From: Candidatus Saganbacteria bacterium
Lineage (GTDB): Bacteria; Margulisbacteria; WOR-1; JAKLHX01
Assembly: GCA_026387835.1 (NCBI GenBank)
Contig: JAPLKZ010000005.1
Location: 249,596 to 281,595 of the forward strand
DNA: 32,000 nt
Direction: 5' to 3'
The notes below the pieces were generated by a model that saw only the letters and a list, made by a program, of their open reading frames with translations, was not told where the DNA came from and did not search any database. Positions 164 to 10,269 of the stretch are shown piece after piece (position 1 is the first letter of the stretch; each line of letters opens with the position of its first letter). A program made the position numbers and the translations under genes.

Positions 164-1087
164 ATGGTTGATATCAAAAAGATCATTGTTGGTGCAGAAG
201 GACCCTGCAGCTCATGGATGCAGGGCTTTGACCCCAGTGACCGTAAAACCGGAAATACTATGTCTAAACTAATTAAAAAATATAATGACAAACACACGGA
301 CAGTAAGCTAGGGTTATCATTCACCAGAGACAATGCGACTGCCAGGTTCACGATCAGTAATTCGCGTTCAGTCACAAAAGGAACAATGAACGACTTGTTT
401 TCTTGCGAGGATTATTTTTTTTCATATCCAAAGATAGACGAAGAACGCGATCATAACGGAAACCTGCAAGGGTCCCTTGTTTTCAGCAACCCGAATAAAG
501 ATCAGAGAACCGGCAAGAGAATAATAAACGGGCAGGTCACTACAAAACTTATAGAGAGCTCTCCTGATTCGAAGACAGCCAAGGAAATTCCTGTAGGCGC
601 ATGTTTTCTGGCTGAGTATAATAAAGAAACTACCGCTCTCCAGACAAGGTTCCTAGAAACATGCATAGCAGTGACTTTTTACGAACCGGGTACAAAAACC
701 GGGGTCCTCGCGCATTTCGACAGCCAGGAAAAAGCCAAAGAACTAAAAAATGTGATTAATACCCTTAAAAATAAAGGGATCGATCTTTCAAAAGTACAGG
801 TCAGCATCATCGGAGGGGACGGGTCCGATCCATCTAACAGGACATTTATCGAGATCAGCAAGATCCTGGACGATGAAATGGTCCCGATCACCGAGACTAA
901 TATCGGGTTCCACGCCAGCCGGCCGTTCAATATAAATCTTGATCTGTCAAACGGGAAAATAACCAGCTATAAAGAAACGATCCAATATAAAAACGATCCA
1001 TCTTACAATGAGAATTTCTTTAAAAAATTCGGGGATTTCACCGAAAGGAACAATTTGGTGATAATCGATGAACTGCCTGACATTTAG
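164..1087 (+). CDS. Hypothetical protein with a C-terminal CheD-like (Cys/His deamidase fold) domain
   Basis: 307-aa ORF. The segment TCIAVTFYEPGTKTGVLAHFDS ... VQVSIIGGDG fits the CheD pattern: a Cys, a His 17 residues later, and a downstream GG motif. The N-terminal ~160 aa are unrecognised. The start is uncertain, with an alternative Met at 260. Confidence 0.5.
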   Translation: MVDIKKIIVGAEGPCSSWMQGFDPSDRKTGNTMSKLIKKYNDKHTDSKLGLSFTRDNATARFTISNSRSVTKGTMNDLFSCEDYFFSYPKIDEERDHNGNLQGSLVFSNPNKDQRTGKRIINGQVTTKLIESSPDSKTAKEIPVGACFLAEYNKETTALQTRFLETCIAVTFYEPGTKTGVLAHFDSQEKAKELKNVINTLKNKGIDLSKVQVSIIGGDGSDPSNRTFIEISKILDDEMVPITETNIGFHASRPFNINLDLSNGKITSYKETIQYKNDPSYNENFFKKFGDFTERNNLVIIDELPDI

Positions 1088-1164
1088 GCGCCTGGTCGTA
1101 CTATTAAATATATTTTGACAACCTGAACCCCTTCAATGCCTAAGTAAAACCCTCCAGAACAATA

Positions 1165-1193
1165 TTCACAACAGCTTCTTTGCAGTATATAAT
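1165..1193 (+). promoter_or_regulatory. Sigma70-like promoter upstream of tRNA-Ser(CGA)
   Basis: ttcaca (1165-1170), a 17-nt spacer, then tataat (1188-1193), about 55 nt before the tRNA. Confidence 0.4.
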
Positions 1194-1247
1194 GGTAAGC
1201 GGAGGAGTGGCCCCCGATAGGGAATCGGGGCAGGCGAGTGGTTTAAT

Positions 1248-1335
1248 GGAGGGATGGCCGAGTGGTTGATGGCGGCGGTCTCGAAAACCGTTTCCCGATC
1301 TAATCGGGACGCAGGTTCGAATCCTGCTCCCTCCG
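1248..1335 (+). tRNA. tRNA-Ser (anticodon CGA)
   Basis: Hand-folded cloverleaf. Acceptor GGAGGGA/TCCCTCC, anticodon loop CTCGAAA, long variable arm TTCCCGATCTAATCGGGAC, T-arm GCAGG-TTCGAAT-CCTGC, discriminator G. Confidence 0.9.
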
Positions 1336-1356
1336 ATTTTTTATGGGAGGTCATTT

Positions 1357-1839
1357 ATGAAAGTATTGGTAGCCTATTATTCGAGGGATGGTGCGACAAG
1401 GAAAGCGGCGGAAAGCATCGCGGGCATATTGAAATGCGATATCGAGGAGATAATCGACACCAGGAACAGGAAGGGCCTGTGGGGTTTCATGACCGGCGGT
1501 TTTGACGCGCAGTTCAAAAAACTGACAGTCATACAAGAGATGAAAAAAGATGCTTCGGCTTATGACCTGGTCGTGATCGGGACACCTATATGGTCTTCGA
1601 AAATGGTCCCGGCAATAAGGACGTATATCATCCAGAACGTAAAAAAAATGAAAAACATAGCAATATTCTGCTGCTTCGGAGGATACGGAGATAAAAAAAC
1701 TTTCAATGATATAGAAACACTGTGCGAGAAACGCGCGGCGTCAAAAGCATCGTTCAAGAGAAATGAAGTGAAGACCGGCGAGTTCATCCAGAAGGCAAAA
1801 GAATTTGCGGGCGAGATACAGAACAGGGAGGCGATCTAA
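1357..1839 (+). CDS. Flavodoxin-like fold protein
   Basis: 160-aa ORF. It has the N-terminal MKVLVAYYSRDGATRKAAE motif and DLVVIGTPIW, both typical of flavodoxin-family proteins. Confidence 0.75.
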   Translation: MKVLVAYYSRDGATRKAAESIAGILKCDIEEIIDTRNRKGLWGFMTGGFDAQFKKLTVIQEMKKDASAYDLVVIGTPIWSSKMVPAIRTYIIQNVKKMKNIAIFCCFGGYGDKKTFNDIETLCEKRAASKASFKRNEVKTGEFIQKAKEFAGEIQNREAI

Positions 1840-2010
1840 ATGAACAAGTTCACGATGATGAAGGCCGGCGGTCTTTTAACACTGGTATTGCTCGCATGCA
1901 CGGCAATTATAGGATATCTCCATCTTGGAATTAAGCTGCATGTGATCTTTGCTATGCTGACACTGGTAGCTGCTTTATCGCACGTGTTTATTGTTATAAA
2001 GAAGGCTTGA
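1840..2010 (+). CDS. Small hydrophobic protein (56 aa), possibly translationally coupled to the flavodoxin-like gene
   Basis: The ATG directly follows the upstream TAA (taaATG). The ORF reads MNKFTMMKAGGLLTLVLLACTAIIGYLHLGIKLHVIFAMLTLVAALSHVFIVIKKA, which gives two predicted TM helices. It is below the ORF-track length cutoff. Confidence 0.4.
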   Translation: MNKFTMMKAGGLLTLVLLACTAIIGYLHLGIKLHVIFAMLTLVAALSHVFIVIKKA

Positions 2011-2078
2011 GTTTGAGTGTGAGTTTTGAGTGTTGAGTTTTTTACTCAAGACTAATTACTCAAACTTAGTACTTAAAT

Positions 2079-2165
2079 GGAGGGGTGGCCGAGTGGTTGA
2101 AGGCGCTCGCCTGGAAAGCGTGTTTACGTGAAAGCGTAACGTGGGTTCGAATCCCACCTCCTCCG
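2079..2165 (+). tRNA. tRNA-Ser (anticodon GGA)
   Basis: Hand-folded. Acceptor GGAGGGG/CTCCTCC (one G:U pair), anticodon loop CTGGAAA, long variable arm, T-arm GTGGG-TTCGAAT-CCCAC. There is one T:T mismatch in the anticodon stem. Confidence 0.85.
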
Positions 2166-3602
2166 ATGATTGAGATATTGAGCGTTTTTAAAAAGCGGCC
2201 GCCAGCCGATCCTAGAATCAAATTGTAATTTTTTGCCTTTCAAAATAAAGTTCGAGCCGATATTTTTTAGGAATGTAAGGATTTCTTCATAATTATTTGT
2301 GGCGATAAGATTTTTGGCTTGGCATCCGGATAAAATAATCTCTTTCATCGGTTCGAGCCAATTATTTCCCTTTTGTTCAAAATCCTTTATCTTTTGTTGT
2401 ATGTCCAGCTTTTCGTTTAATAGGGCATTCTTTTTTACCTGATATGTTTCCGGGTCTATGCCTTCCCCCTCTATGAACAGATCAAGCAGTTTATCCATTT
2501 TTACTGCAATATCAGATTTCTTTTGTTGCAGATTTTGAACAAAAGATTTTGTTTCTGCTTGAGCAAGCTCTTTTTCGTTATTGAGGTCTATCAGCATTTT
2601 CTTCACCCAGTCATCAGGGATTATCGTTTTGCTGATAGCATCTTTCATCTGATCGATTATGGATTCCTGGCGCGTATATTTCTCATCACACTTTTGCTTT
2701 TTCTTAGTGCAGCGATAATAGATATGGCCTTTTTGCTTTTCGGCGGTTATCATACAACCACAATTGCCGCATCGCATCAGTCCAGAAAAAGCAAATTCAT
2801 GTTTTCGTTTGCGCTTTTTCTTGCCTCTATTGGCCATTACTTGTTGAGCTTGCTCATATAGAGATTTGGAAATAATTGGCTCGTGAGTTCCTTCGTGCAT
2901 TTCTCCGTTATATCGGAATACTCCATAATAAAAAGGACTTTTTAACATGTGCTGGACACGGGCAGGAACGAGGATATATCCACGATAGCTTTTCATCCCG
3001 GCTCTTTCAAGGAATTGCTTTATTGAAAGCAATGTATAGTCACCGGTTGCATACAGCTCAAATGCCTTTCGTATTAGCGGAGCTTTTTCAGTATCAACTT
3101 CAATTCCTTTTGTCTTGTAATTGTTTAGATACCCCAATGGAGCAAATGCAGGCCAAATACCGTTACGCACTTTCTGCCGATGTCCTCGTTTTACATTCTC
3201 GCTTAGATTATCTATGTAATACTTGCTTTGGCCAAAGGCGATATTTAACATGAATTTTCCTTGAGGTGTAGAATCAAACCAGAAGGTCGGGAACTTGAGA
3301 TCTTTCAGCCTGCCCGTGTCCAGCAAGTAAATAATTTTGCCTCCATCTATTGAATTGCGTGCTAATCTGTCCGGATGCCAAGCCAAAACGCCACAAGCTT
3401 CACCTTTTTCAATCCGATCAAGCATTTCATTGAATATTTCTCTGCCGGGTTCTTTGGCAGTTTTTGCCTCGCAGAGCGAGGCGACGATTTCAAGTTTTTC
3501 TTTGGCGGCAAATTCTTTTAGCTCAACCAATTGTGCCTCAATGGATAATATCTGTCTTTCTTCCGAATCAGTTGATTTCCGGGCATAAAGGAAATACTTC
3601 AT
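2124..3602 (-). CDS. Large serine recombinase (resolvase/invertase catalytic domain + recombinase domain + zinc ribbon + coiled coil)
   Basis: N-terminus MKYFLYARKSTDSEERQ carries the catalytic Ser motif. DRLARN follows, then RCGNCGCMITAEKQKGHIYYRC (zinc ribbon). The ATG at 3602 is preceded by aaaggaggaggg, so the TTG at 3620 in the ORF track is likely spurious. The last 13 codons are antisense to tRNA-Ser(GGA). Confidence 0.9.
   Translation of the reverse strand: MKYFLYARKSTDSEERQILSIEAQLVELKEFAAKEKLEIVASLCEAKTAKEPGREIFNEMLDRIEKGEACGVLAWHPDRLARNSIDGGKIIYLLDTGRLKDLKFPTFWFDSTPQGKFMLNIAFGQSKYYIDNLSENVKRGHRQKVRNGIWPAFAPLGYLNNYKTKGIEVDTEKAPLIRKAFELYATGDYTLLSIKQFLERAGMKSYRGYILVPARVQHMLKSPFYYGVFRYNGEMHEGTHEPIISKSLYEQAQQVMANRGKKKRKRKHEFAFSGLMRCGNCGCMITAEKQKGHIYYRCTKKKQKCDEKYTRQESIIDQMKDAISKTIIPDDWVKKMLIDLNNEKELAQAETKSFVQNLQQKKSDIAVKMDKLLDLFIEGEGIDPETYQVKKNALLNEKLDIQQKIKDFEQKGNNWLEPMKEIILSGCQAKNLIATNNYEEILTFLKNIGSNFILKGKKLQFDSRIGWRPLFKNAQYLNHRRRWDSNPRYAFT
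2163..2239. repeat. IR-A left copy (imperfect inverted repeat flanking the recombinase gene)
   Basis: It is the reverse complement of 3693-3762. Identical blocks are ccgatgattgagat (14), gtttttaaaaagcggccgccagccgatcc (29), aaattg (6) and aattttttgcctt (13). The left copy has a 7-nt variable patch and a 7-nt indel. Confidence 0.85.
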
Positions 3603-3759
3603 AATCCCTCCTCCTTTCAATATAGATATCGGTCAAAAAGCCCGCTTTTGGCCAGCTTCATTTGGAGTATTTATTGCTCCAAATGGAGCTGTAAGGCAAA
3701 AAATTCCAATTTGGATCGGCTGGCGGCCGCTTTTTAAAAACGGCGGAAATCTCAATCAT
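2166..3759 (-). mobile_element. Putative minimal integrative element carrying only the serine recombinase, inserted at the 3' end of tRNA-Ser(GGA)
   Basis: Terminal inverted arms abut the tRNA discriminator base. Joining the inner arms gives the palindrome atctcaatc-AT-gattgagat. Joining the outer arms gives the quasi-palindrome ctccg-AT-cggga. Confidence 0.5.
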
Positions 3760-3762
3760 CGG
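3693..3762. repeat. IR-A right copy
   Basis: It is the reverse complement of 2163-2239 (see the left copy). It includes an inverted copy of the recombinase 3'-end sequence. Confidence 0.85.
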
Positions 3763-3870
3763 GAACTATATAAAAATATCAGAACCGAGATGACCGCCGA
3801 TCCTTAGGGCGGCGGTTGCCGCCGTCCAACCGCCGCCCCGTTCCCGCTGCTGGGCGACCTTTTCGGATTG
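3759..3870. repeat. IR-B left copy (112-bp inverted repeat)
   Basis: It is the reverse complement of 8433-8544, with 2 mismatches by manual alignment. It is GC-rich and contains an 11-bp-stem hairpin. Confidence 0.9.
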
Positions 3871-3936
3871 AAAAACTGCCAAAGAACCCAAAAATATCGG
3901 CTCAAACTTTATTTTGGCCAAAAGCGGGCTTTTTGA
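3871..3936 (+). pseudogene. Mosaic remnant of a second serine-recombinase locus
   Basis: 3871-3889 is identical to the reverse complement of 3447-3465 (codons KTAKEP). 3890-3916 matches the reverse complement of 2241-2267 at 26/27 (codons KNIGSNFIL). 3916-3936 is identical to the reverse complement of 3633-3653, the region upstream of the recombinase gene. Confidence 0.7.
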
Positions 3937-4014
3937 ATTCCGGATTGTCCCCGACCACCCACCCCTGAATAAATTGATAAATAACGCAATTATTGTTAGT
4001 ATTATATTGAAAGG

Positions 4015-4035
4015 TAGCATATCAATAATATGCTA
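4015..4035. promoter_or_regulatory. Palindromic candidate operator upstream of the HTH gene
   Basis: tagcatat-caata-atatgcta has perfect 8-bp arms and lies 17 nt before the HTH ATG. A possible promoter is ttgata (3975-3980), 17 nt, then tagtat. Confidence 0.4.
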
Positions 4036-4051
4036 TCAATTAAATGATATA

Positions 4052-4258
4052 ATGTCAATAAATAATAATATAGGAAAGAATATCAAACGTTTACGCACAA
4101 AATTAGGCTTCTCGCAAGAGACCTTGGCTGTAAAATCAGATGTAAAATACACGACTCTTACTAAGATTGAGAGTAATGTTATAAAGAAACCCTCAGTATT
4201 GCTAATGGCAAAAATCGCAAATATATTAAATGTTCAAATTGAGGAGCTAATAAAATAA
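4052..4258 (+). CDS. XRE-family helix-turn-helix protein (68 aa; C-protein/controller-like)
   Basis: IGKNIKRLRTKLGFSQETLAVKSDVKYTTLTKIESN is a canonical HTH_3 motif. I chose the internal Met of ORF 3914..4258, because the upstream part of that ORF lies in the recombinase-remnant sequence. Confidence 0.8.
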   Translation: MSINNNIGKNIKRLRTKLGFSQETLAVKSDVKYTTLTKIESNVIKKPSVLLMAKIANILNVQIEELIK

Positions 4259-4262
4259 CCAT

Positions 4263-4958
4263 ATGAAATATGAATTGGAAATTTATAATAGAAATGTGCC
4301 TGATGAGCATCTTCTTGATGATTTAAAAGCAGTTGCTAAGAAATTAGGCAGGTCTTCTGTGACTCATGAGGAATATAATAAAAATGGGAAGTATAATAGT
4401 ACAACTTATATGCGAAGATTTGGTGGTTGGTTTAAATCGTTAGAAATGGCAGGGCTCCAAAAAACAAGAACGCCAGCTAATGTTTCCGAAGATGACTTGT
4501 TTAACAATATTGAAGAGATTTGGATAAAACTCGGCAGACAACCACGATATCAAGAAGTTAGAACCCCATTATCAAAATATTGTGCAGGAACATACGAAAA
4601 CAGATTTGGAACATGGCGGAAGGCACTAGAAGCTTTCATAGATTATATTAATAAGGATCAAGATAAATGTTCAAATGAAATATCTCAAAAAGAGATAAAA
4701 TCCGGAGAGACTTCTAAATCTAATAAACACATAAAGATGACAAAAAGAGAAATATCGGATAGATTGCGTTTCCGGATATTATTAAGAGATGGTTTTACGT
4801 GCAGAAAATGTGGCCGCAGTCCGCTGAAGAATCCAGGAATCGAATTGCATGTTGATCATATCCTTCCTTGGTCCAAAGGTGGCGAGACAACGATTGAGAA
4901 TCTCGAGACGAAATGCGAAAAATGCAATCTGGGTAAAGGGAATGCATTTGATGTTTGA
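4263..4958 (+). CDS. HNH endonuclease with two N-terminal homing-endonuclease-associated repeats
   Basis: C-terminus HVDHILPWSKGGETTIENLETKCEKCNLGKGN is an HNH motif. Two repeats of the type L..LGR.....EY........STY.RRFG.W..AL occupy the N-terminal half. The start is 4 nt after the HTH stop. Confidence 0.85.
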   Translation: MKYELEIYNRNVPDEHLLDDLKAVAKKLGRSSVTHEEYNKNGKYNSTTYMRRFGGWFKSLEMAGLQKTRTPANVSEDDLFNNIEEIWIKLGRQPRYQEVRTPLSKYCAGTYENRFGTWRKALEAFIDYINKDQDKCSNEISQKEIKSGETSKSNKHIKMTKREISDRLRFRILLRDGFTCRKCGRSPLKNPGIELHVDHILPWSKGGETTIENLETKCEKCNLGKGNAFDV

Positions 4959-5012
4959 TTCTTATATAGAAATGGGTAATGTCTTAGAGCAGTTAATAAG
5001 GATTGTAATAAC

Positions 5013-5924
5013 ATGGCAAATATAACATGCAAAGCGAATAATCTAAGCGGGAAAAGATGCAAAAGGAATCCTCTGAAATCTGGGTTTTGTCCAACTCATG
5101 ACCCGGAAATATTAAATAAAAAAGAAGAACAGAAGAAGGCTGATGAAAAAAAGCGACAAAAAATAGATGAATTATTATCTATTGTCACAAAAACATGTAA
5201 GGCAAATGGTTGGGGCTGGGAAGTTGATGCATTTGATGATAATGATTTTTCTTCAGCCATTGTTAATGTTCATAAATATGTTTCAGGTCAAGACATTTCA
5301 GCATTGTTTCACATTAATATATCAAAAGACAATATTCAGTATAGGATTGAGAAAACATCATTTTACGGATACGGCGTTGAGGCATTAATGAGTTCAATAT
5401 CAAGTGCATTTGAAAGAAAAGGATTTGTTAGTCCAAAATCACTAGGAGGTGAACCAAATAAAAAGAATTCCTTATTAGATGTTTTGCCGATAATATTTGA
5501 ACGATTTCATGTTGTGGCAACGCAGCTGTCAAATCGTTATAATAAGAGACCTACATTGACAATTTCTGATGAATATGACGTACAGGATCTTTTACATGCT
5601 CTCCTTCGAGTTCATTTTACCGATGTTAGGCCAGAGGAGTATACTCCCAGTTATGCGGGATCATCTTCAAGAATAGATTTCCTTCTCAAAGATGAGAAGA
5701 CGCTTCTTGAGGTTAAATATGCAACAACTTCCTTAAAGGACAAAGCGATTGGAGAACAGTTAATAATAGATGTTGAGAAGTATAAAAGACACACCGATTG
5801 TGAAAACTTGTTTTGTTTCATATATAATCCAGGTTTTTCTATTAAGAATCCAAGCGGGCTAGAAAAAGATTTGTCAGGAAAAAATGGTAATATTAATGTT
5901 AAAGTATTCGTTTACCCAAAATAA
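5013..5924 (+). CDS. Predicted PD-(D/E)xK-like nuclease with an N-terminal Cys/His knuckle
   Basis: DEYDVQDLLHALL...RPEEYTPSYAGSSSRIDFLLKDEKTLLEVKY shows a D...E-x-K arrangement. The N-terminus is CKANNLSGKRCKRNPLKSGFCPTH. The family assignment is from memory of similar proteins and has not been searched. Confidence 0.5.
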   Translation: MANITCKANNLSGKRCKRNPLKSGFCPTHDPEILNKKEEQKKADEKKRQKIDELLSIVTKTCKANGWGWEVDAFDDNDFSSAIVNVHKYVSGQDISALFHINISKDNIQYRIEKTSFYGYGVEALMSSISSAFERKGFVSPKSLGGEPNKKNSLLDVLPIIFERFHVVATQLSNRYNKRPTLTISDEYDVQDLLHALLRVHFTDVRPEEYTPSYAGSSSRIDFLLKDEKTLLEVKYATTSLKDKAIGEQLIIDVEKYKRHTDCENLFCFIYNPGFSIKNPSGLEKDLSGKNGNINVKVFVYPK

Positions 5925-5932
5925 AATAGAAA

Positions 5933-5989
5933 CTAAAAGAATTTGCCGCCAAAGCTCTTGGCGTTTCAATAGAGGAGTTAATGAAATAG
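5933..5989 (+). repeat. Cassette-junction direct repeat C1 (recombinase-gene segment + HTH 3' tail remnant)
   Basis: 5933-5954 is identical to the reverse complement of 3500-3521. In frame it reads KLKEFAAKALGVSIEELMK followed by a stop, 1 nt before the ATG at 5991. Confidence 0.8.
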
Positions 5990-5990
5990 C

Positions 5991-6821
5991 ATGAAAAATA
6001 AAACACTCGCAATTTTCGGTATAGGAACGTATATCTTATCTGTCTTGTTGTCTGCTACAGATTCGGGAGGCAATTCTGTTGCGCCAATTACATTAATCTC
6101 AATATCGGGAATAGCAACCGCGGTATTTATCATTATGGCGATAGTCCGCCTCTGGAAGGAAGAAAAAGGCGCATCAATAACACTTGCATCTTCGGCTATT
6201 ATTCTTTTTATATTGTCAGTAGTTCAGGGTTTTGCCTCACCTTCGTACGGAAGTCCACTCATCATTATGTTAAACATAACCAAAGTATTTTATTTCATCG
6301 CATTTATTTGGACGATAATAGTACTTTATAGAAGTAAAGTAATTAATTCGCACATGATTACCAAAATAGATAATTATCACTTAAACCAACCCGTAAATGA
6401 AGCGCCGGATTTGAAGGAATACACAGCCGAAGAATATCAAATGTTTGAGATGGCTGGATATAAAAGGATATCTGAAAATGAAAAAATCTTTAGAGGCGGA
6501 ATTGTTAAATTCGCTTATATTCCGTGGGGCGAAACAACTATCGGAACTATAGATAATAAAATCTACAAAATATCGTTACAATTAATCACCCAAAACGAGA
6601 TCTTAGCAAAAGAAGTGTTTAAAACCACCCTCAATTACTTAATAGAACAAATGGACAAATATAGTGAACATCCATTTCTATCTAATAAATATATTTGGGA
6701 TGCACCTGAGGGGAATATCATTTATGAGCAAATAAATAGATTTAATCAGCATTGCATAAACATTTTTATTACTTCAAGCTCTATAAGAGATCAAGTGAAG
6801 AATTATATTTCAAAACACTAG
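5991..6821 (+). CDS. Hypothetical membrane protein (N-terminal multi-TM region + soluble C-terminal domain)
   Basis: 276-aa ORF. The first ~115 aa contain about 4 hydrophobic helices. No motif was recognised. Confidence 0.55.
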   Translation: MKNKTLAIFGIGTYILSVLLSATDSGGNSVAPITLISISGIATAVFIIMAIVRLWKEEKGASITLASSAIILFILSVVQGFASPSYGSPLIIMLNITKVFYFIAFIWTIIVLYRSKVINSHMITKIDNYHLNQPVNEAPDLKEYTAEEYQMFEMAGYKRISENEKIFRGGIVKFAYIPWGETTIGTIDNKIYKISLQLITQNEILAKEVFKTTLNYLIEQMDKYSEHPFLSNKYIWDAPEGNIIYEQINRFNQHCINIFITSSSIRDQVKNYISKH

Positions 6822-6832
6822 GGGGAAAATAT

Positions 6833-7360
6833 ATGATTATTAAAGTTATTGTTGAAATCATTTTAGGATTTATTTTGTTGGGAGTTAGTTCTGCTTTTTG
6901 GAATTGTGTTAAATCTCCGAAATTCTTAGCGAATGTGCTGGGTGATTATGACGAATTAAAAAGGTTTTTCCATCATCTAGGGAAAGAAAATATTAAACAC
7001 GAAAGTGAAGTTGTTGATCCGAAAATTGGATTTTCGGCAAATATCGTTTTATGGATTAAAGCGAGCCTATCGGCGCTGGACAAAACACGCAACATGTTGC
7101 TGGTTGTAATAATAGGAATCTTTATCGGAAGTTATTTTCTAGGAAATATTTTCCTCTTAATCAATGCTGTTTTATTCTTTATAATGGCTTTCCCAAGCAT
7201 TTCTGCTGCTGCTAAAAATAATATAATTACTGATATTCATACGATAATGCTTAATGTCTACAAATGGAACAAAGTAAATCATGCTGAATGTGAGAGGTTT
7301 TGTAACTTAGAGCAGCCAAGGATTATGAAAAATATTTATAGAGTAGTAACTGAAGAATAA
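6833..7360 (+). CDS. Hypothetical membrane protein
   Basis: I chose the internal ATG at 6833, which is preceded by ggggga. The track start at 6752 overlaps the previous gene. Hydrophobic helices occur at the N-terminus and mid-protein. Confidence 0.5.
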   Translation: MIIKVIVEIILGFILLGVSSAFWNCVKSPKFLANVLGDYDELKRFFHHLGKENIKHESEVVDPKIGFSANIVLWIKASLSALDKTRNMLLVVIIGIFIGSYFLGNIFLLINAVLFFIMAFPSISAAAKNNIITDIHTIMLNVYKWNKVNHAECERFCNLEQPRIMKNIYRVVTEE

Positions 7361-7413
7361 AAGGATTTGCCGCCAAAGCGTAGGGCGTTTCAATTGGAGA
7401 TTTAATAAAATAA
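7359..7413 (+). repeat. Cassette-junction direct repeat C2 (degenerate copy of C1)
   Basis: 44/55 identical to 5935-5989 by hand alignment. It reads KGFAAKA(stop)GVSIGDLIK(stop) and ends 4 nt before the ATG at 7418. Confidence 0.75.
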
Positions 7414-7417
7414 ATTT

Positions 7418-8401
7418 ATGTCATTATTTAAGAAAAAATTAACCGAGCAAGAAGCCGCCTCTCATTTTGTCCTTTATATTACAAAAGAGGCACAAAGTGC
7501 ATGGCCTGCCATTTATAAAAGTCTTCAAGATTCTTTTAAAGATAAATTTGTTGTAGAAGACGAAACAATGGCAGCATTTGATTTGGCTCTTGCCGCAATC
7601 GCCCAAGATTTACAGGCGGTAAATAATTTATTTCCAAAAGACCAAGCAGAAAGAATTGAAAAATGGGTTTTAAAATGCATTAATACTGAAGATTGGGGCG
7701 AATATGCGGTTGGCGAAGTGAAAAAATATGGGGAAAGATTTCAAAAGGATATTCAAAATATCAATGCCGGTGGCGATCCTTTGAGCGCCATCCCAACTCG
7801 CTTACTCCAGCAATGGCTAGGAAAAAATATTCAAGGCTTTGATGTAGAAATGAACGGAAAGAAAACCGGAATTATAAGCCCCTTTCTTCTTATGATGGTT
7901 TCCAGTATGCTTGCCGCCTTTCTTGGAACTTGGAAAAAACTAAAGGATGATTTTAATCTTGTTGAGGGCGACATACCTTTTGATGAAAAACCAAGTGGCT
8001 TGAAAGATTATGTACCCGAGCCGGATGAAAAAAAGCCTAACGGAACTATTCAATATTATGATGAAAACGGGAACCTAAAAGAGAAATGGTTGCCACCGGA
8101 ACAAATAAATGAACTTTTAAAGAAAGACGGCGCAAAGCGACTTTATAAAGTACTCGTTAAGGGACATTGGGACGGTGTTAAGGAAGCCCTTTGGGAACTT
8201 TCTGATGATACTGCTCAAAAATATGTTGATGAAAATGGTTATGCTTATGCAATTTGCACTTACGACACAGGAGAATTAAAATATTACTTTATTTCAAGAA
8301 GATTATGGGAGAAACAAGAGCAAATGGGAAAAATCTTGATGGATCAAAATTTATCACCGGAACAACAGCAAGAAGCAGTTAGAAAATTAATGGATGACTA
8401 A
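7418..8401 (+). CDS. Hypothetical protein (one central hydrophobic helix)
   Basis: 327-aa ORF with AT-rich codon usage like its neighbours. No motif was recognised. Confidence 0.5.
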   Translation: MSLFKKKLTEQEAASHFVLYITKEAQSAWPAIYKSLQDSFKDKFVVEDETMAAFDLALAAIAQDLQAVNNLFPKDQAERIEKWVLKCINTEDWGEYAVGEVKKYGERFQKDIQNINAGGDPLSAIPTRLLQQWLGKNIQGFDVEMNGKKTGIISPFLLMMVSSMLAAFLGTWKKLKDDFNLVEGDIPFDEKPSGLKDYVPEPDEKKPNGTIQYYDENGNLKEKWLPPEQINELLKKDGAKRLYKVLVKGHWDGVKEALWELSDDTAQKYVDENGYAYAICTYDTGELKYYFISRRLWEKQEQMGKILMDQNLSPEQQQEAVRKLMDD

Positions 8402-8432
8402 AATTTCCGCCAAAGAAAAACTTGAAATCGTC
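8402..8432 (+). repeat. Junction repeat C3 / recombinase 5' fragment abutting IR-B
   Basis: 8407-8432 is identical (26 bp) to the reverse complement of 3483-3508 (codons AKEKLEIV). Confidence 0.8.
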
Positions 8433-8544
8433 CAATCCGAAAAGGTCGCCCAGCAGCGGGAACGGGGCGGCGGTTGGATGGCGGCAACCGCCGCCCTAAG
8501 GATCGGCGGTCAGCTCGGTTCTGATATTTTTATATAGTTCCCGA
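8433..8544. repeat. IR-B right copy (112-bp inverted repeat)
   Basis: It is the reverse complement of 3759-3870 with 2 mismatches. The hairpin ggcggcggttg-gatggcgg-caaccgccgcc lies at 8466-8495. Confidence 0.9.
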
Positions 8545-8545
8545 A

Positions 8546-9694
8546 TTATTTCTTCCGCAGCACCCACATCATCTCTTTCACTCTTATATTCCTGTTCCTA
8601 AGGTTCCTTGACCCTCGGTAAGTATTATATTCGCTTGACATAAGCTTCCATTTTCCGTGTTTGGACAGGATGGACTTGAAAGTCTTAACGGGGATTATCC
8701 CTTCATCATTGTAAGAGATAACGATGAATTTAGCTCTGGTGTTTTTCAGAAGTTGGTCCATTGCCTCTTCGGCAAGATGCCTTTTGTTATAAACGGACTT
8801 GTTCCAATCCCGCGTGATCCCGCTGACGCCGTCCTGGATATAAAAGTTTTTATAGTCATTTATAAGGTTCAGCATGAAATAGTTTGACCCGTAAGGATGC
8901 TGGTTATAGGGCGGGTCAAGATAGACAAGATCGAACTCCGGAAGATTTGTGTCTTTAACAAGCCGATTAATATCTTTTTTTAGTACAACGACCTTACACT
9001 CGATATCAGAGAATACCGGCACTTCAAGGGTTATTTCCTTTTTTATCCTTGAGAGGGCATTCTCGCCTTTGCCTCCGAAATGGCCGATGCCGTTCTTCTT
9101 GTGGAACCCTTTGAAGACGCCGGAAGTGTTCGTGTGTATAGATGCTTCCACCAGAAGCGATGCAAGACAGAAGACGCGGTATTTTTCGGGAACGTCTTTG
9201 TCGATGAGTTTCCTAATATTATCGATGACCTGAGCGTTCTTGCTCGTATAAAAAACCCGCTCTCCGGATTTAATATCCATATCATCCTTTGGCGAATAAT
9301 TGAGGCTGATGAAACCTGGCTTATTTATGGATAATTTACGATCATTTAGAATGTCTATGTAATATTCAAGCTTTTTAACATTTATCTCTGATCTGTTTGC
9401 AAGATAACATCTGTTTAGCGTAAAACTGTAATTCTCAAGGTCATTGGCATACAGGACCTTTGCGTAATATTTCAAAAGCCTCGAAACTGAGCCGCTTCCC
9501 GCGAAACCGTCAAGGATAACAAGTTTTTCTTTGTTAAGTATTTTCTTAACTTTAGCAAACCCCTTATTAAGAAAGGAAAGGAGCGACCTTTTATTGCCGA
9601 GATAAGTTATCAGCTGAGAAGAAAAATATGGGGCATCTAAGTCAAGGTATTCCGGGGCATTGCCGGAAAATAAAGATCGTTGTATGTGTGCCAT
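8546..9694 (-). CDS. N6-adenine DNA methyltransferase, D12 (Dam-like, alpha) class
   Basis: YLGNKR is followed by the FAGSGS AdoMet motif, with DPPY (VYLDPPYN) about 200 aa downstream. This motif order is typical of alpha-class adenine methyltransferases. Confidence 0.8.
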   Translation of the reverse strand: MAHIQRSLFSGNAPEYLDLDAPYFSSQLITYLGNKRSLLSFLNKGFAKVKKILNKEKLVILDGFAGSGSVSRLLKYYAKVLYANDLENYSFTLNRCYLANRSEINVKKLEYYIDILNDRKLSINKPGFISLNYSPKDDMDIKSGERVFYTSKNAQVIDNIRKLIDKDVPEKYRVFCLASLLVEASIHTNTSGVFKGFHKKNGIGHFGGKGENALSRIKKEITLEVPVFSDIECKVVVLKKDINRLVKDTNLPEFDLVYLDPPYNQHPYGSNYFMLNLINDYKNFYIQDGVSGITRDWNKSVYNKRHLAEEAMDQLLKNTRAKFIVISYNDEGIIPVKTFKSILSKHGKWKLMSSEYNTYRGSRNLRNRNIRVKEMMWVLRKK

Positions 9695-9783
9695 TAACTA
9701 TGGGGTAATTTTAACATATAAATCTTTAACTGAAAAATACTTGCCATTTTTCCGATATATGTTATTATAATGCCAAATAATCA

Positions 9784-10269
9784 ATGAGAAAGATCTCCAA
9801 AACAAAAGCAATTGCATTTGTAATTTTGTGTTATCTGCTGGCTTTGCCGGCATTATCTGTCCCTGTATTTTTAGACGCCGGATTGAACGCGGGGAACTCC
9901 TCAGACGGCTCTATATCCGGCAAGAAGAATGCATGGTCCAGCAAATCGGGAAAAGATATGGTGTTCTGGATAAAGGTCCAGCCCGGATCCGATCTTGAAG
10001 AAGGTGAAATCAGATATCAGTTCATGCTTGACATGACGGCTCCCGATAAAGAAATGGTTCTTTCAGAAGGCCCTTATAATTTCGATAACGGCGGGGAAGG
10101 CAGGATATTCAAGAATACCTGGTATTTTGCGAACGCCAGGACGATCAATTTTCCGACGCCCGAAGTGTACGGTACCTGGGAGGTCGGCTTCAGTCTGCGG
10201 AACAAAAACACCGGAGAAGTGATAAAGGCAAAGACATTCAACTTCGAGTTCATCGACTCGACAAAGTAA
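9784..10269 (+). CDS. Secreted hypothetical protein (paralog of the next gene)
   Basis: It has a signal-peptide-like N-terminus. It shares MVFWIKVQP / EGPYNFD..G...IFKNTWYF.NA / GTWEVGF motifs with 10289..11056. A possible promoter is ttgcca-17-attata upstream. Confidence 0.6.
   Translation: MRKISKTKAIAFVILCYLLALPALSVPVFLDAGLNAGNSSDGSISGKKNAWSSKSGKDMVFWIKVQPGSDLEEGEIRYQFMLDMTAPDKEMVLSEGPYNFDNGGEGRIFKNTWYFANARTINFPTPEVYGTWEVGFSLRNKNTGEVIKAKTFNFEFIDSTK

Follow-up and report, generated by a model that had tools for sequence, protein, structure and literature searches.

Candidate recombination joints made of a recombinase-gene segment and a helix-turn-helix gene tail in a serine-recombinase island of Candidatus Saganbacteria

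RESULTS

Anatomy of the junction repeats

We analyzed a 32,000-nucleotide (nt) stretch of a Candidatus Saganbacteria genome (GenBank assembly GCA_026387835.1, contig JAPLKZ010000005.1, positions 249,596 to 281,595 of the forward strand), referred to here as the window and numbered from its first nucleotide. Positions 2163-8544 read as a 6.4-kb integrative island at the 3' end of a tRNA-Ser(gga) gene, which carries a large serine recombinase (LSR) gene, R1, and a cargo operon headed by an XRE-type helix-turn-helix (HTH) gene. Within the operon are two repeats, J1 and J2. We consider it moderately likely that J1 and J2 are recombination joints in an operon built from at least three blocks of different elements, joined at the heptamer GCCAAAG, and that the HTH gene tail in each joint was retained as a ribosome-binding site. 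The features on which this reading depends are as follows.

3483-3521, minus strand: k, within R1 codons 28-52; source-like sequence of the junction repeats
3466-3482, minus strand: pal, a palindrome, within R1 codons 28-52
3447-3465, minus strand: C, within R1 codons 28-52
4052-4258, plus strand: XRE-type HTH gene heading the cargo operon (Pfam HTH_3, 1.6e-13; PADLOC control-protein-like matches)
5933-5989, plus strand: J1, left part and core of k (5933-5954), followed by the remnant of an HTH tail that includes GAGGAG and a stop
7358-7413, plus strand: J2, left part and core of k (7358-7378), followed by a decayed HTH tail that contains TAG in frame
8401-8432, plus strand: T, the terminal k copy, adjoining the right arm Y' exactly where pal begins in the recombinase gene

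The initial annotation had described J1 and J2 as direct repeats in which an HTH 3' tail remnant is fused to a recombinase-gene segment, and this anatomy is correct for both. Positions 5934-5988 and 7358-7412 are 82% identical over 55 nt in a repeat search, and self-BLAST of 1901-10000 gave this similarity an E value of 1.4e-7. The repeat search also linked the end of the HTH gene (4232-4265) to J1 and J2, forming a three-member repeat family. In self-BLAST, 3500-3521 of the recombinase gene is a perfect inverted match to 5933-5954 of J1 (22/22 nt; E = 7.5e-6 within the locus), and 3500-3520 matches 7358-7378 of J2 at 20 of 21 nt. Since k (AAAGAATTTGCCGCCAAAGAAAAACTTGAAATCGTC) is near-invariant at the nucleotide level among loci across the family, the identity is not diagnostic of recent copying from the R1 gene.

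Both repeats fall outside any long open reading frame (ORF) and contain stops. J1 reads K-LKEFAAKALGVSIEELMK-stop, with another stop ahead of it, and its terminal stop lies 1 nt from the ATG at 5991. J2 reads KGFAAKA-stop-GVSIGDLIK-stop and ends 4 nt from the ATG at 7418, while the intact HTH gene ends ..IEELIK-stop, with the ATG of an HNH endonuclease gene 4 nt further, at 4263. These frames and stop-to-ATG spacings agree with those first given. A Shine-Dalgarno-like sequence is present in every joint, with GAGGAG or GGAG and a stop just ahead of the next ATG; the GAGGAG in the tail of the HTH gene probably acts as the Shine-Dalgarno site of the gene that follows. J1 has a dyad about the joint (CGCCAA-AGCTC-TTGGCG).

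When joints were aligned, the invariant part was TTTGCCGCCAAAGC.TT.GGCGTTTC. To its left lies either more of k or unrelated sequence, and to its right lies the HTH tail; intact HTH genes read ...GCCAAAGCGCTTGGCGTTTC... at the same place. The heptamer GCCAAAG is common to k and to the last helix of the HTH protein.

Other proposed copies fared unevenly. A candidate third remnant at 4985-5003 matches TAGAGGAGTTAAT of J1 at 12 of 13 positions (shuffle p ~0.02), a marginal result; the k-core is absent there, and the similarity to J2 or to the HTH tail is not significant. The k copy noted as a shortened version at 8402-8418 is present and is not shortened: T (8401-8432) matches 3483-3514 over 32 nt (94%, 26 perfect). 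An occurrence of TTGCCGCC in a 112-nt inverted repeat, also cited as part of the pattern, lies within a G+C-rich hairpin, and we take it to be a coincidence.

Under the favored reading, the left half of a joint would be the conserved k up to GCCGCCAAAG, which would normally close a cargo block beside the distal attachment (att) arm. The right half would be the last ~35 nt of the HTH gene that once headed the following block. The blocks would have been joined at the heptamer, either by short-homology recombination or by the recombinase itself. The tail may have persisted because its stop and GAGGAG/GGAG region serve translation of the following gene. The joints would then come from recombination and not from duplication.

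Joints and modules in other loci

Comparison with other loci (numbered with the prefix L) involves the following additional features of the window.

3690-3762, plus strand: A', second, inverted copy of the recombinase 3' end
3759-3870, plus strand: Y, left inverted-repeat arm (112 nt), joined to A' as the attP-like site S2 (core tcgg, 3759-3762)
3915-3936, plus strand: X', inverted match to 3633-3654
4263-4958, plus strand: module 1a, HNH endonuclease with HNH_repeat (Pfam, PADLOC)
5013-5924, plus strand: module 1b, protein with a REase_DpnII-MboI domain (Pfam, PADLOC)
5991-6821 and 6833-7360, plus strand: module 2, two predicted membrane proteins (ORFs; no Pfam or PADLOC match)
7418-8401, plus strand: module 3, 327-amino-acid (aa) protein
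8433-8544, plus strand: Y', right arm of the inverted repeat, with a terminator-like hairpin (8499-8522) and the core CCGA at 8541-8544, the distal boundary

A pattern scan of JGI metagenomes for the k-core plus tail returned 21 stretches. Genuine J-type joints were present in 5 of them, and the other 16 were chance matches; the J pattern also had eight matches in IMG/VR viral contigs, all eight of which were unrelated coding sequences and were set aside. In L108, L104, and L110, which come from other metagenomes, J-type joints stand ahead of unrelated genes, which upholds the earlier proposal of a cassette array with a conserved joint. The array in L108 consists of X' and HTH, two ORFs, a joint, a gene, a degenerate joint, a gene, a joint, and a gene. 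At its start, the L108 array shares 89% identity with the X'-HTH region of L045, an LSR element, and its joint J3 matches k at 21 of 22 nt. L068 contains three cargo blocks, each closed by k (split by two small hairpins) and a partial Y'.

The 327-aa protein of module 3 has ~110 homologues with up to 85% identity, mostly on short contigs; few have source names, and these are from very different phyla. In L132, the 327-aa gene follows a near-intact HTH gene (with an internal stop) and its tail. Identity between L132 and the window (90%) begins at 7372, inside GCCAAAG, and the HTH body in L132 replaces the left part of k. The J2 tail and the tail of the HTH gene directly ahead of the same cassette in L132 are identical at 44 of 49 positions by hand count. 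An additional gene in L132, for a 208-aa product, lies between the 327-aa gene and T and has k-cores on both sides. The position of the cassette behind a near-intact HTH gene, with homology from inside the k-core, supports the modularity that had been ascribed to it. In L135, the 327-aa gene occurs without an HTH tail, k, or arms.

L133 has the 327-aa gene followed by T (35/35 to k of the window recombinase), Y', the core, and host genes. It lacks a recombinase, and only an 18-codon HTH tail is left after the tRNA/A' junction (a slash marks a junction here and below). Both att arms (tRNA/A' and Y'/host) persist in L133 (1-260) together with this tail and three cargo genes, and the locus may be a non-autonomous element open to mobilisation in trans. 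No homology was found between the membrane proteins of the window and the 269- and 180-aa proteins of L133.

A sister island, L136, occupies the same tRNA-Ser(gga) gene in a different gene neighbourhood. Its recombinase is 92% identical to R1, and its backbone is 90% identical at the nucleotide level. The cargo of L136 is unrelated to that of the window: homology ends at 3969, just past X', and restarts at 8416, in the right part of k.

Constraint on k and structure within the recombinase gene

Third-codon-position conservation at k is 0.73-0.81 compared with a background of ~0.5, and further peaks of such conservation lie at C, at B, and at two internal segments. In related loci, T carries lineage-specific variants of k from the recombinase of its own locus. 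This covariation implies that the pair is held alike by conversion or common constraint.

The palindrome pal (GCCTCGC-TCT-GCGAGGC, codons ASLCEA) covaries family-wide, and its pairing is kept by compensatory changes: 84.8% of cells are paired compared with 72% after shuffling, with 36 double-change cells compared with 12 (0/500). The position of pal is the exact point at which T meets Y' and at which Y meets the C copy. The Y'-Y pair appears as if substituted for pal in a circularly permuted ghost of the recombinase gene.

Perfect inverted repeats of 15-17 nt, long-range and nested, occur at conserved positions within the R1 ORF (window 2354-3325; nt 278-294 with 637-653, 720-735 with 1234-1249, and 1058-1072 with 1219-1233). 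Among 41 homologues, these three pairs have compensatory changes, with 49, 37, and 74 double-change cells, respectively, compared with 31, 12, and 28 after shuffling. Such repeats suggest a structured mRNA or a single-stranded DNA stage.

Two structural ideas were rejected. A single nested fold of RNA or single-stranded DNA uniting the X, B, C, A, and Y repeats with their partners and k with T fails because these pairs cross; nesting is confined to the helices b, c, d, and pal, which lie inside the ORF. The k-core as a mimic of the att core (tRNA ...CCGCCA) fails since CCACCA and CTGCCAA cores coexist with an unchanged k-core, and also since loci with differing k do not match their own core.

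The conserved backbone of the recombinase family

A homologue survey, restricted to one genome per species, yielded 80 loci whose recombinases share 50-75% identity. The loci are mostly from Patescibacteria, with many other phyla besides; the homologues in this identity range include members of Patescibacteria, Saganbacteria, Margulisbacteria, Omnitrophota, Nitrospira, and Brocadia. The backbone recurs with one layout in ~30 loci with enough flank. Read in the direction of the recombinase, it begins with the host/Y junction, the reverse complement of k, variable cargo of 0.9-8 kb, and X, B', and C'. It continues with the Y'/A' junction, a hairpin, X', and the recombinase gene, which contains k, pal, and C and further on B and A, and it ends at the tRNA. 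Within one locus, Y and Y' are mostly 100% identical, as are A and A'.

In related loci, the arms overlap in a core of 3-9 nt that matches the tRNA 3' end, and the 3' end of the recombinase gene adjoins the tRNA 3' end. The tRNAs targeted by the family are those for Ser, Gln, Trp, Arg, Leu, and Glu, in many phyla. The Y arm has a conserved motif like the tRNA T-arm (TTCGAAC), set ~6 bp more distant from the core than its tRNA counterpart; from structures of LSRs with att sites, attP and attB half-sites are expected to show such a ~6-bp offset.

In nearly all members, an intact inverted copy of the predicted circle junction (window 3690-3870; the S2 sites of L027-L060) lies 60-250 nt upstream of the recombinase start and is mostly 100% identical to the outer arms. 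Candidate roles for it are those of an operator, a second attP, or a flip site. Tandem direct integration was rejected as the source of this internal Y'/A' junction, whose orientation is inverted relative to the outer junctions. Many T copies are split right after GCCAAAG by two small hairpins, the sequence of which is lineage-specific and the arrangement of which is conserved; the T of the window is without them. Hairpin-split copies of k occur in L136 (4283-4360), L017 (7671-7739), L031 (~6130), L037 (~1612), and L068 (3334, 4364, and 6543).

Rearranged members were also found. In L040, L047, and L029, the order is HTH, cargo, k, pal, C, recombinase body, and the A/tRNA junction, with the recombinase cut exactly at k. 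These recombinases (L040 1120-2517, L047 2429-3655, and L029 10001-11386) lack codons 1-27, including the catalytic serine, and still have ORFs that exceed 400 codons; in L040, a single TAG separates the truncated recombinase from the cargo ORF upstream of it, which is in the same frame. The left flank of L047 is host/Y and not A/Y. In L017 (3719-5398), the recombinase is joined at B through X' to HTH in one 559-aa ORF, P0038, present on seven contigs. The corresponding stretch is stop-free in the window (3871-4258) and in L047 from X' on, although most or all of the recombinase is gone from it. The arrangements in L017 and in L040, L047, and L029 are those expected of deletions between direct copies after the flip of one segment bounded by inverted repeats, and we infer that such segments flip on an evolutionary time scale.

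Our literature search found the k sequence in no paper and found no description of this architecture or family. The inverted attP copy, the perfect co-evolving copies of four recombinase segments, the covarying palindrome, and the long-range helices are unaccounted for by current models of LSR elements.

Layout of the island and its surroundings

The remaining features of the island are as follows.

2078-2166, plus strand: tRNA-Ser(gga), integration target (ARAGORN, Rfam tRNA), with the crossover core CCGA at its 3' end (2163-2166)
2124-3602, minus strand: R1, LSR of 492 aa (Pfam Resolvase, Recombinase, and Zn_ribbon_recom); the ORF extends into the tRNA
2163-2242, minus strand: A arm, the last ~80 nt of the R1 gene; inverted-repeat match to A'
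3633-3654, plus strand: X, upstream of R1 (repeat search, self-BLAST)
3655-3689, plus strand: hairpin between X and A'
3871-3889, plus strand: C copy, a "ghost" recombinase piece; inverted match to 3447-3465
3890-3916, plus strand: B copy, a "ghost" recombinase piece; inverted match to 2241-2267
3974-4002, ahead of the HTH gene: promoter-like site (promoter scan)

R1 contains the Resolvase, Recombinase, and zinc-ribbon domains of an LSR (Pfam matches of 2e-19, 6e-17, and 1e-9, respectively). It is a 100% match to P0001 of a Candidatus Saganbacteria metagenome-assembled genome and has homologues in the thousands. The ends of the island share the short core CCGA with its target, one of them at the tRNA 3' end (2163-2166) and the other at 8541-8544; the same core, as TCGG, stands at the start of the left arm (3759-3762). 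The arms Y and Y' are 98% complementary over 112 nt, with low-GC cargo between them. The sister element L136 and other family members are present in other hosts or sites. From the sequence, the left junction reads as tRNA/A, the right one as Y'/host, and the internal A'/Y junction as an inverted, intact copy of the expected circle junction. No empty site of the exact host was recovered.

The C, B, and X' copies are perfect or near-perfect inverted matches to their sources (repeat search, self-BLAST) and lie together (3871-3936) in one open frame reaching into the HTH gene. The cargo, consisting of the HTH, HNH, REase-like, two membrane, and 327-aa proteins, reads as one operon with a putative promoter ahead and a putative terminator in Y'; a scan of the locus found no terminator-like sites between cassettes. 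In an Rfam scan of 1000-10000, the only match beyond two tRNAs was below threshold and antisense to the first tRNA.

Whereas the A and A' arms of most relatives are 100% identical, those of the window (2163-2242 and 3690-3762) are just ~90% identical. Judged by eye, the upstream copy (..FKNGGNLNHR) is nearer to the C terminus of the sister recombinase (..FKNGGYISHRR) than to the R1 end (..FKNAQYLNHRR). The reduced identity and the sister-like upstream copy hint at an older or recombinant element.

The gene for a D12-class (Dam-like) adenine methyltransferase (8546-9694, minus strand) lies 1 nt past the island boundary; in other assemblies, contigs that carry it run on into host genes. This methyltransferase lies outside the island, and the protein with the REase_DpnII-MboI domain (5013-5924) lies inside it. 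Two tRNA-Ser genes are present, cga at 1247-1336 and gga at 2078-2166, with a small ORF between them that is flavodoxin-like by reading of its sequence. L022 has the same tRNA-Ser pair with the element at the cga gene, which implies that neighbouring Ser tRNAs are used by related recombinases.

Stability of the array

The cargo contig is identical in at least five samples. In an exact look-up, none of the ORFs predicted for inversion products (R1 N terminus plus J1 tail, R1 N terminus plus T/Y', and T plus R1 body) was on record, and the native T ORF and R1 were both found; this is a weak negative. Logan contig ends at 8436 and 8442 were considered as a sign of inversion at T and rejected, since co-occurring L133-type elements share T-Y' and differ at 8406 and ~8445; the break in the assembly graph near 8436 arises because related elements share T-Y'. 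The array appears to be fixed in this strain, with no sign of ongoing switching in these samples or in the look-up. The same data speak against the inversion between 3500-3521 and 5933-5954 that the initial annotation had put forward as a working switch.

DISCUSSION

Proposed scars of block joining and other explanations

The reading of J1 and J2 as scars of cargo-block joining draws on the joint anatomy, the conservation of the backbone, and the constraint at the level of k. It also draws on the recurrence of J joints and of k-bounded blocks, on homology breakpoints at the k-core, on the replacement of cargo between sister islands, on the apparent recombination products at repeated segments in L040, L047, L029, and L017, and on the tail-only remnant in L133. 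Several points weigh against it. The evidence is all comparative, and no event was directly observed. Because J1 and J2 share the breakpoint between k and tail, they may represent one joint that was duplicated and not two independent recombinations. The three-gene set of L133 (269, 180, and 327 aa) has no k-core ahead of the 327-aa gene, so some gene boundaries are not module boundaries. One breakpoint recurs in the J joints, the hairpin inserts of T, the L132 insertion, and the L136 swap, which favors a site-specific process over sporadic short-homology recombination. Finally, the internal inverted attP and the perfect C, B, and X copies are left unexplained.

The recurring breakpoint leads to a tentative alternative, to which we give some weight, namely an active, integron-like cassette platform in which the serine recombinase acts on k-cores and J1 and J2 are functional sites and not scars. 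Circular cassettes carrying a J site (left part of k, core, and tail) would enter at T or at the 3' end of the HTH gene and could later exit. The breakpoint just past GCCAAAG is found in J joints of several lineages as well as at the L132 insertion, the L136 swap, and the hairpin inserts of T; the synonymous positions of k are constrained; T stays identical to the k of its own locus; and J1 has its dyad about the joint. Against such a platform, the k-core does not covary with the att core, in that loci with CCACCA or CTGCCAA mostly keep GCCGCCAAAG in k, and k has no clear likeness to attP or attB half-sites. LSRs are known for strict pairing of attP with attB, which also counts against it, and neither circles nor variant orders were seen, the contig being identical in the samples compared and the predicted recombinant ORFs absent. 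In a broader version, which we find doubtful, the whole LSR family would be a platform for cassette capture. The k-core would be a second dedicated site, copied as T, for promoterless cassettes, and the inverted attP with the C, B, and X copies would mediate programmed inversions and deletions that remodel the recombinase into short, HTH-fused, and 5'-truncated forms.

The switch first proposed for this locus, in which inversion between k (3500-3521) and J1, J2, or T places the recombinase promoter and ~40 codons ahead of the cassettes and breaks the recombinase, is highly unlikely. It is true that J1, J2, and T have the opposite orientation to k in R1 and that recombination truncating the recombinase at k has occurred in L040, L047, and L029. 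However, those loci join cargo to the recombinase body and not the recombinase 5' end to cassettes, and the host/Y flank of L047 makes deletions likelier than reversible inversions. The cassettes already form one operon behind a promoter-like site, none of the predicted fusion ORFs is on record, and the graph break at 8436 has its explanation in elements sharing T-Y'. We judge it just as improbable that the repeats are a duplicated translation-initiation or intergenic element (stop plus Shine-Dalgarno) whose likeness to the recombinase is incidental. Every joint does have GAGGAG or GGAG and a stop just ahead of the next ATG, and the peptide AAKALGVS is common in HTH proteins generally. The matches of 22/22 and 20/21 nt to k, the E value of the former within the locus, and the 21/22 match of the L108 joint J3 run counter to this idea, as do the identity of the left half of the joint with k in independent metagenomes and the presence of k without a tail in T; identity to k and the distribution in the family largely refute it. 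Least credible of all are two models that had been offered, an orphan-module array as in polymorphic toxin/immunity loci and a shufflon exchanging the C-terminal ends of a single protein. The resemblance is a superficial one of repeated joints ahead of successive genes. The locus has neither a large 5' toxin or adhesin gene nor an expressed 5' coding unit common to the cassettes, the joints do not code for protein and have stops ahead of and within them, and Pfam detected no toxin-delivery domains in the window proteins. For a shufflon, the repeats among cassettes (J1, J2, and T) are direct and not inverted, every cassette is a full gene that starts at an ATG of its own, and the recombinase is a serine enzyme and not Rci-like.

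Relation to known systems

The SCC and SCCmec elements (staphylococcal cassette chromosome) use the LSRs CcrAB or CcrC and target the 3' end of rlmH/orfX. The present element resembles them in being an LSR island whose modules alternate with short direct repeats bearing a displaced gene 3' end (here the HTH 3' tails of J1 and J2), in the persistence of recombinase-less modules in the array, and in its highly variable cargo. It differs in its target, which is a tRNA 3' end and not rlmH, and in its internal repeats, which derive from its own HTH gene tail and a recombinase piece and not from the end of the chromosomal target. To our knowledge, an internal inverted attP copy and recombinase-fragment repeats are not known in SCC. 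In our judgement, the LSR clade of R1 is distinct from Ccr.

Integrons consist of the tyrosine recombinase IntI, the attI site, attC cassettes, and the promoter Pc. Like them, the island has one promoter ahead of co-directional and mostly promoterless genes, with a conserved site bounding each gene, and has cassettes common to different arrays. By reading of their N-terminal sequences, the cassettes of related arrays encode small, varied, adaptive proteins that appear VOC-, SRPBCC-, and arginase-like. In contrast to integrons, the sole recombinase is a serine enzyme, no IntI stands next to an attI and Pc, and the site lies partly inside the recombinase coding sequence. With respect to attC, the J joints have a short dyad about the joint, and many T copies have two variable hairpins at the same point. 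The predicted circle, with two inverted copies of the site region (A/Y and Y'/A', ~200 nt each) that yield two invertible segments, recalls the yeast 2-micron plasmid and Flp; the enzyme class and biology are different, and flipping here is deduced from the arrangements in L017 and in L040 and L047.

Tycheposons are small cargo elements at tRNA genes, where repeated integrations push older elements inward and leave degenerate remnants (bioRxiv 10.1101/2020.12.28.424599). In that survey, 910 of 937 elements had tyrosine recombinases, and the remnants were partial tRNAs (bioRxiv 10.1101/2020.12.28.424599). The remnants described here are instead k-cores and HTH tails, and the recombinase belongs to a distinct LSR family. 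SCC, integrons, and tycheposon-type islands are the nearest analogues, and k-type joints, an internal inverted attP, and co-evolving repeats of recombinase fragments are not known from any of them.

Implications

If the k-core joints are true exchange points, this family would be a compact and very widespread vehicle through which small operons and individual genes, among them those for nucleases and for restriction-modification or other defence, pass between distant phyla. Such a vehicle would combine a serine recombinase with a joint that keeps every incoming gene translatable. The backbone could also inform the control of LSR directionality or expression, which is relevant to the use of LSRs in genome engineering. 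Were the cassette platform to prove true, the family would be the equivalent of the integron among serine recombinases, present in the candidate phyla radiation and in many other phyla.

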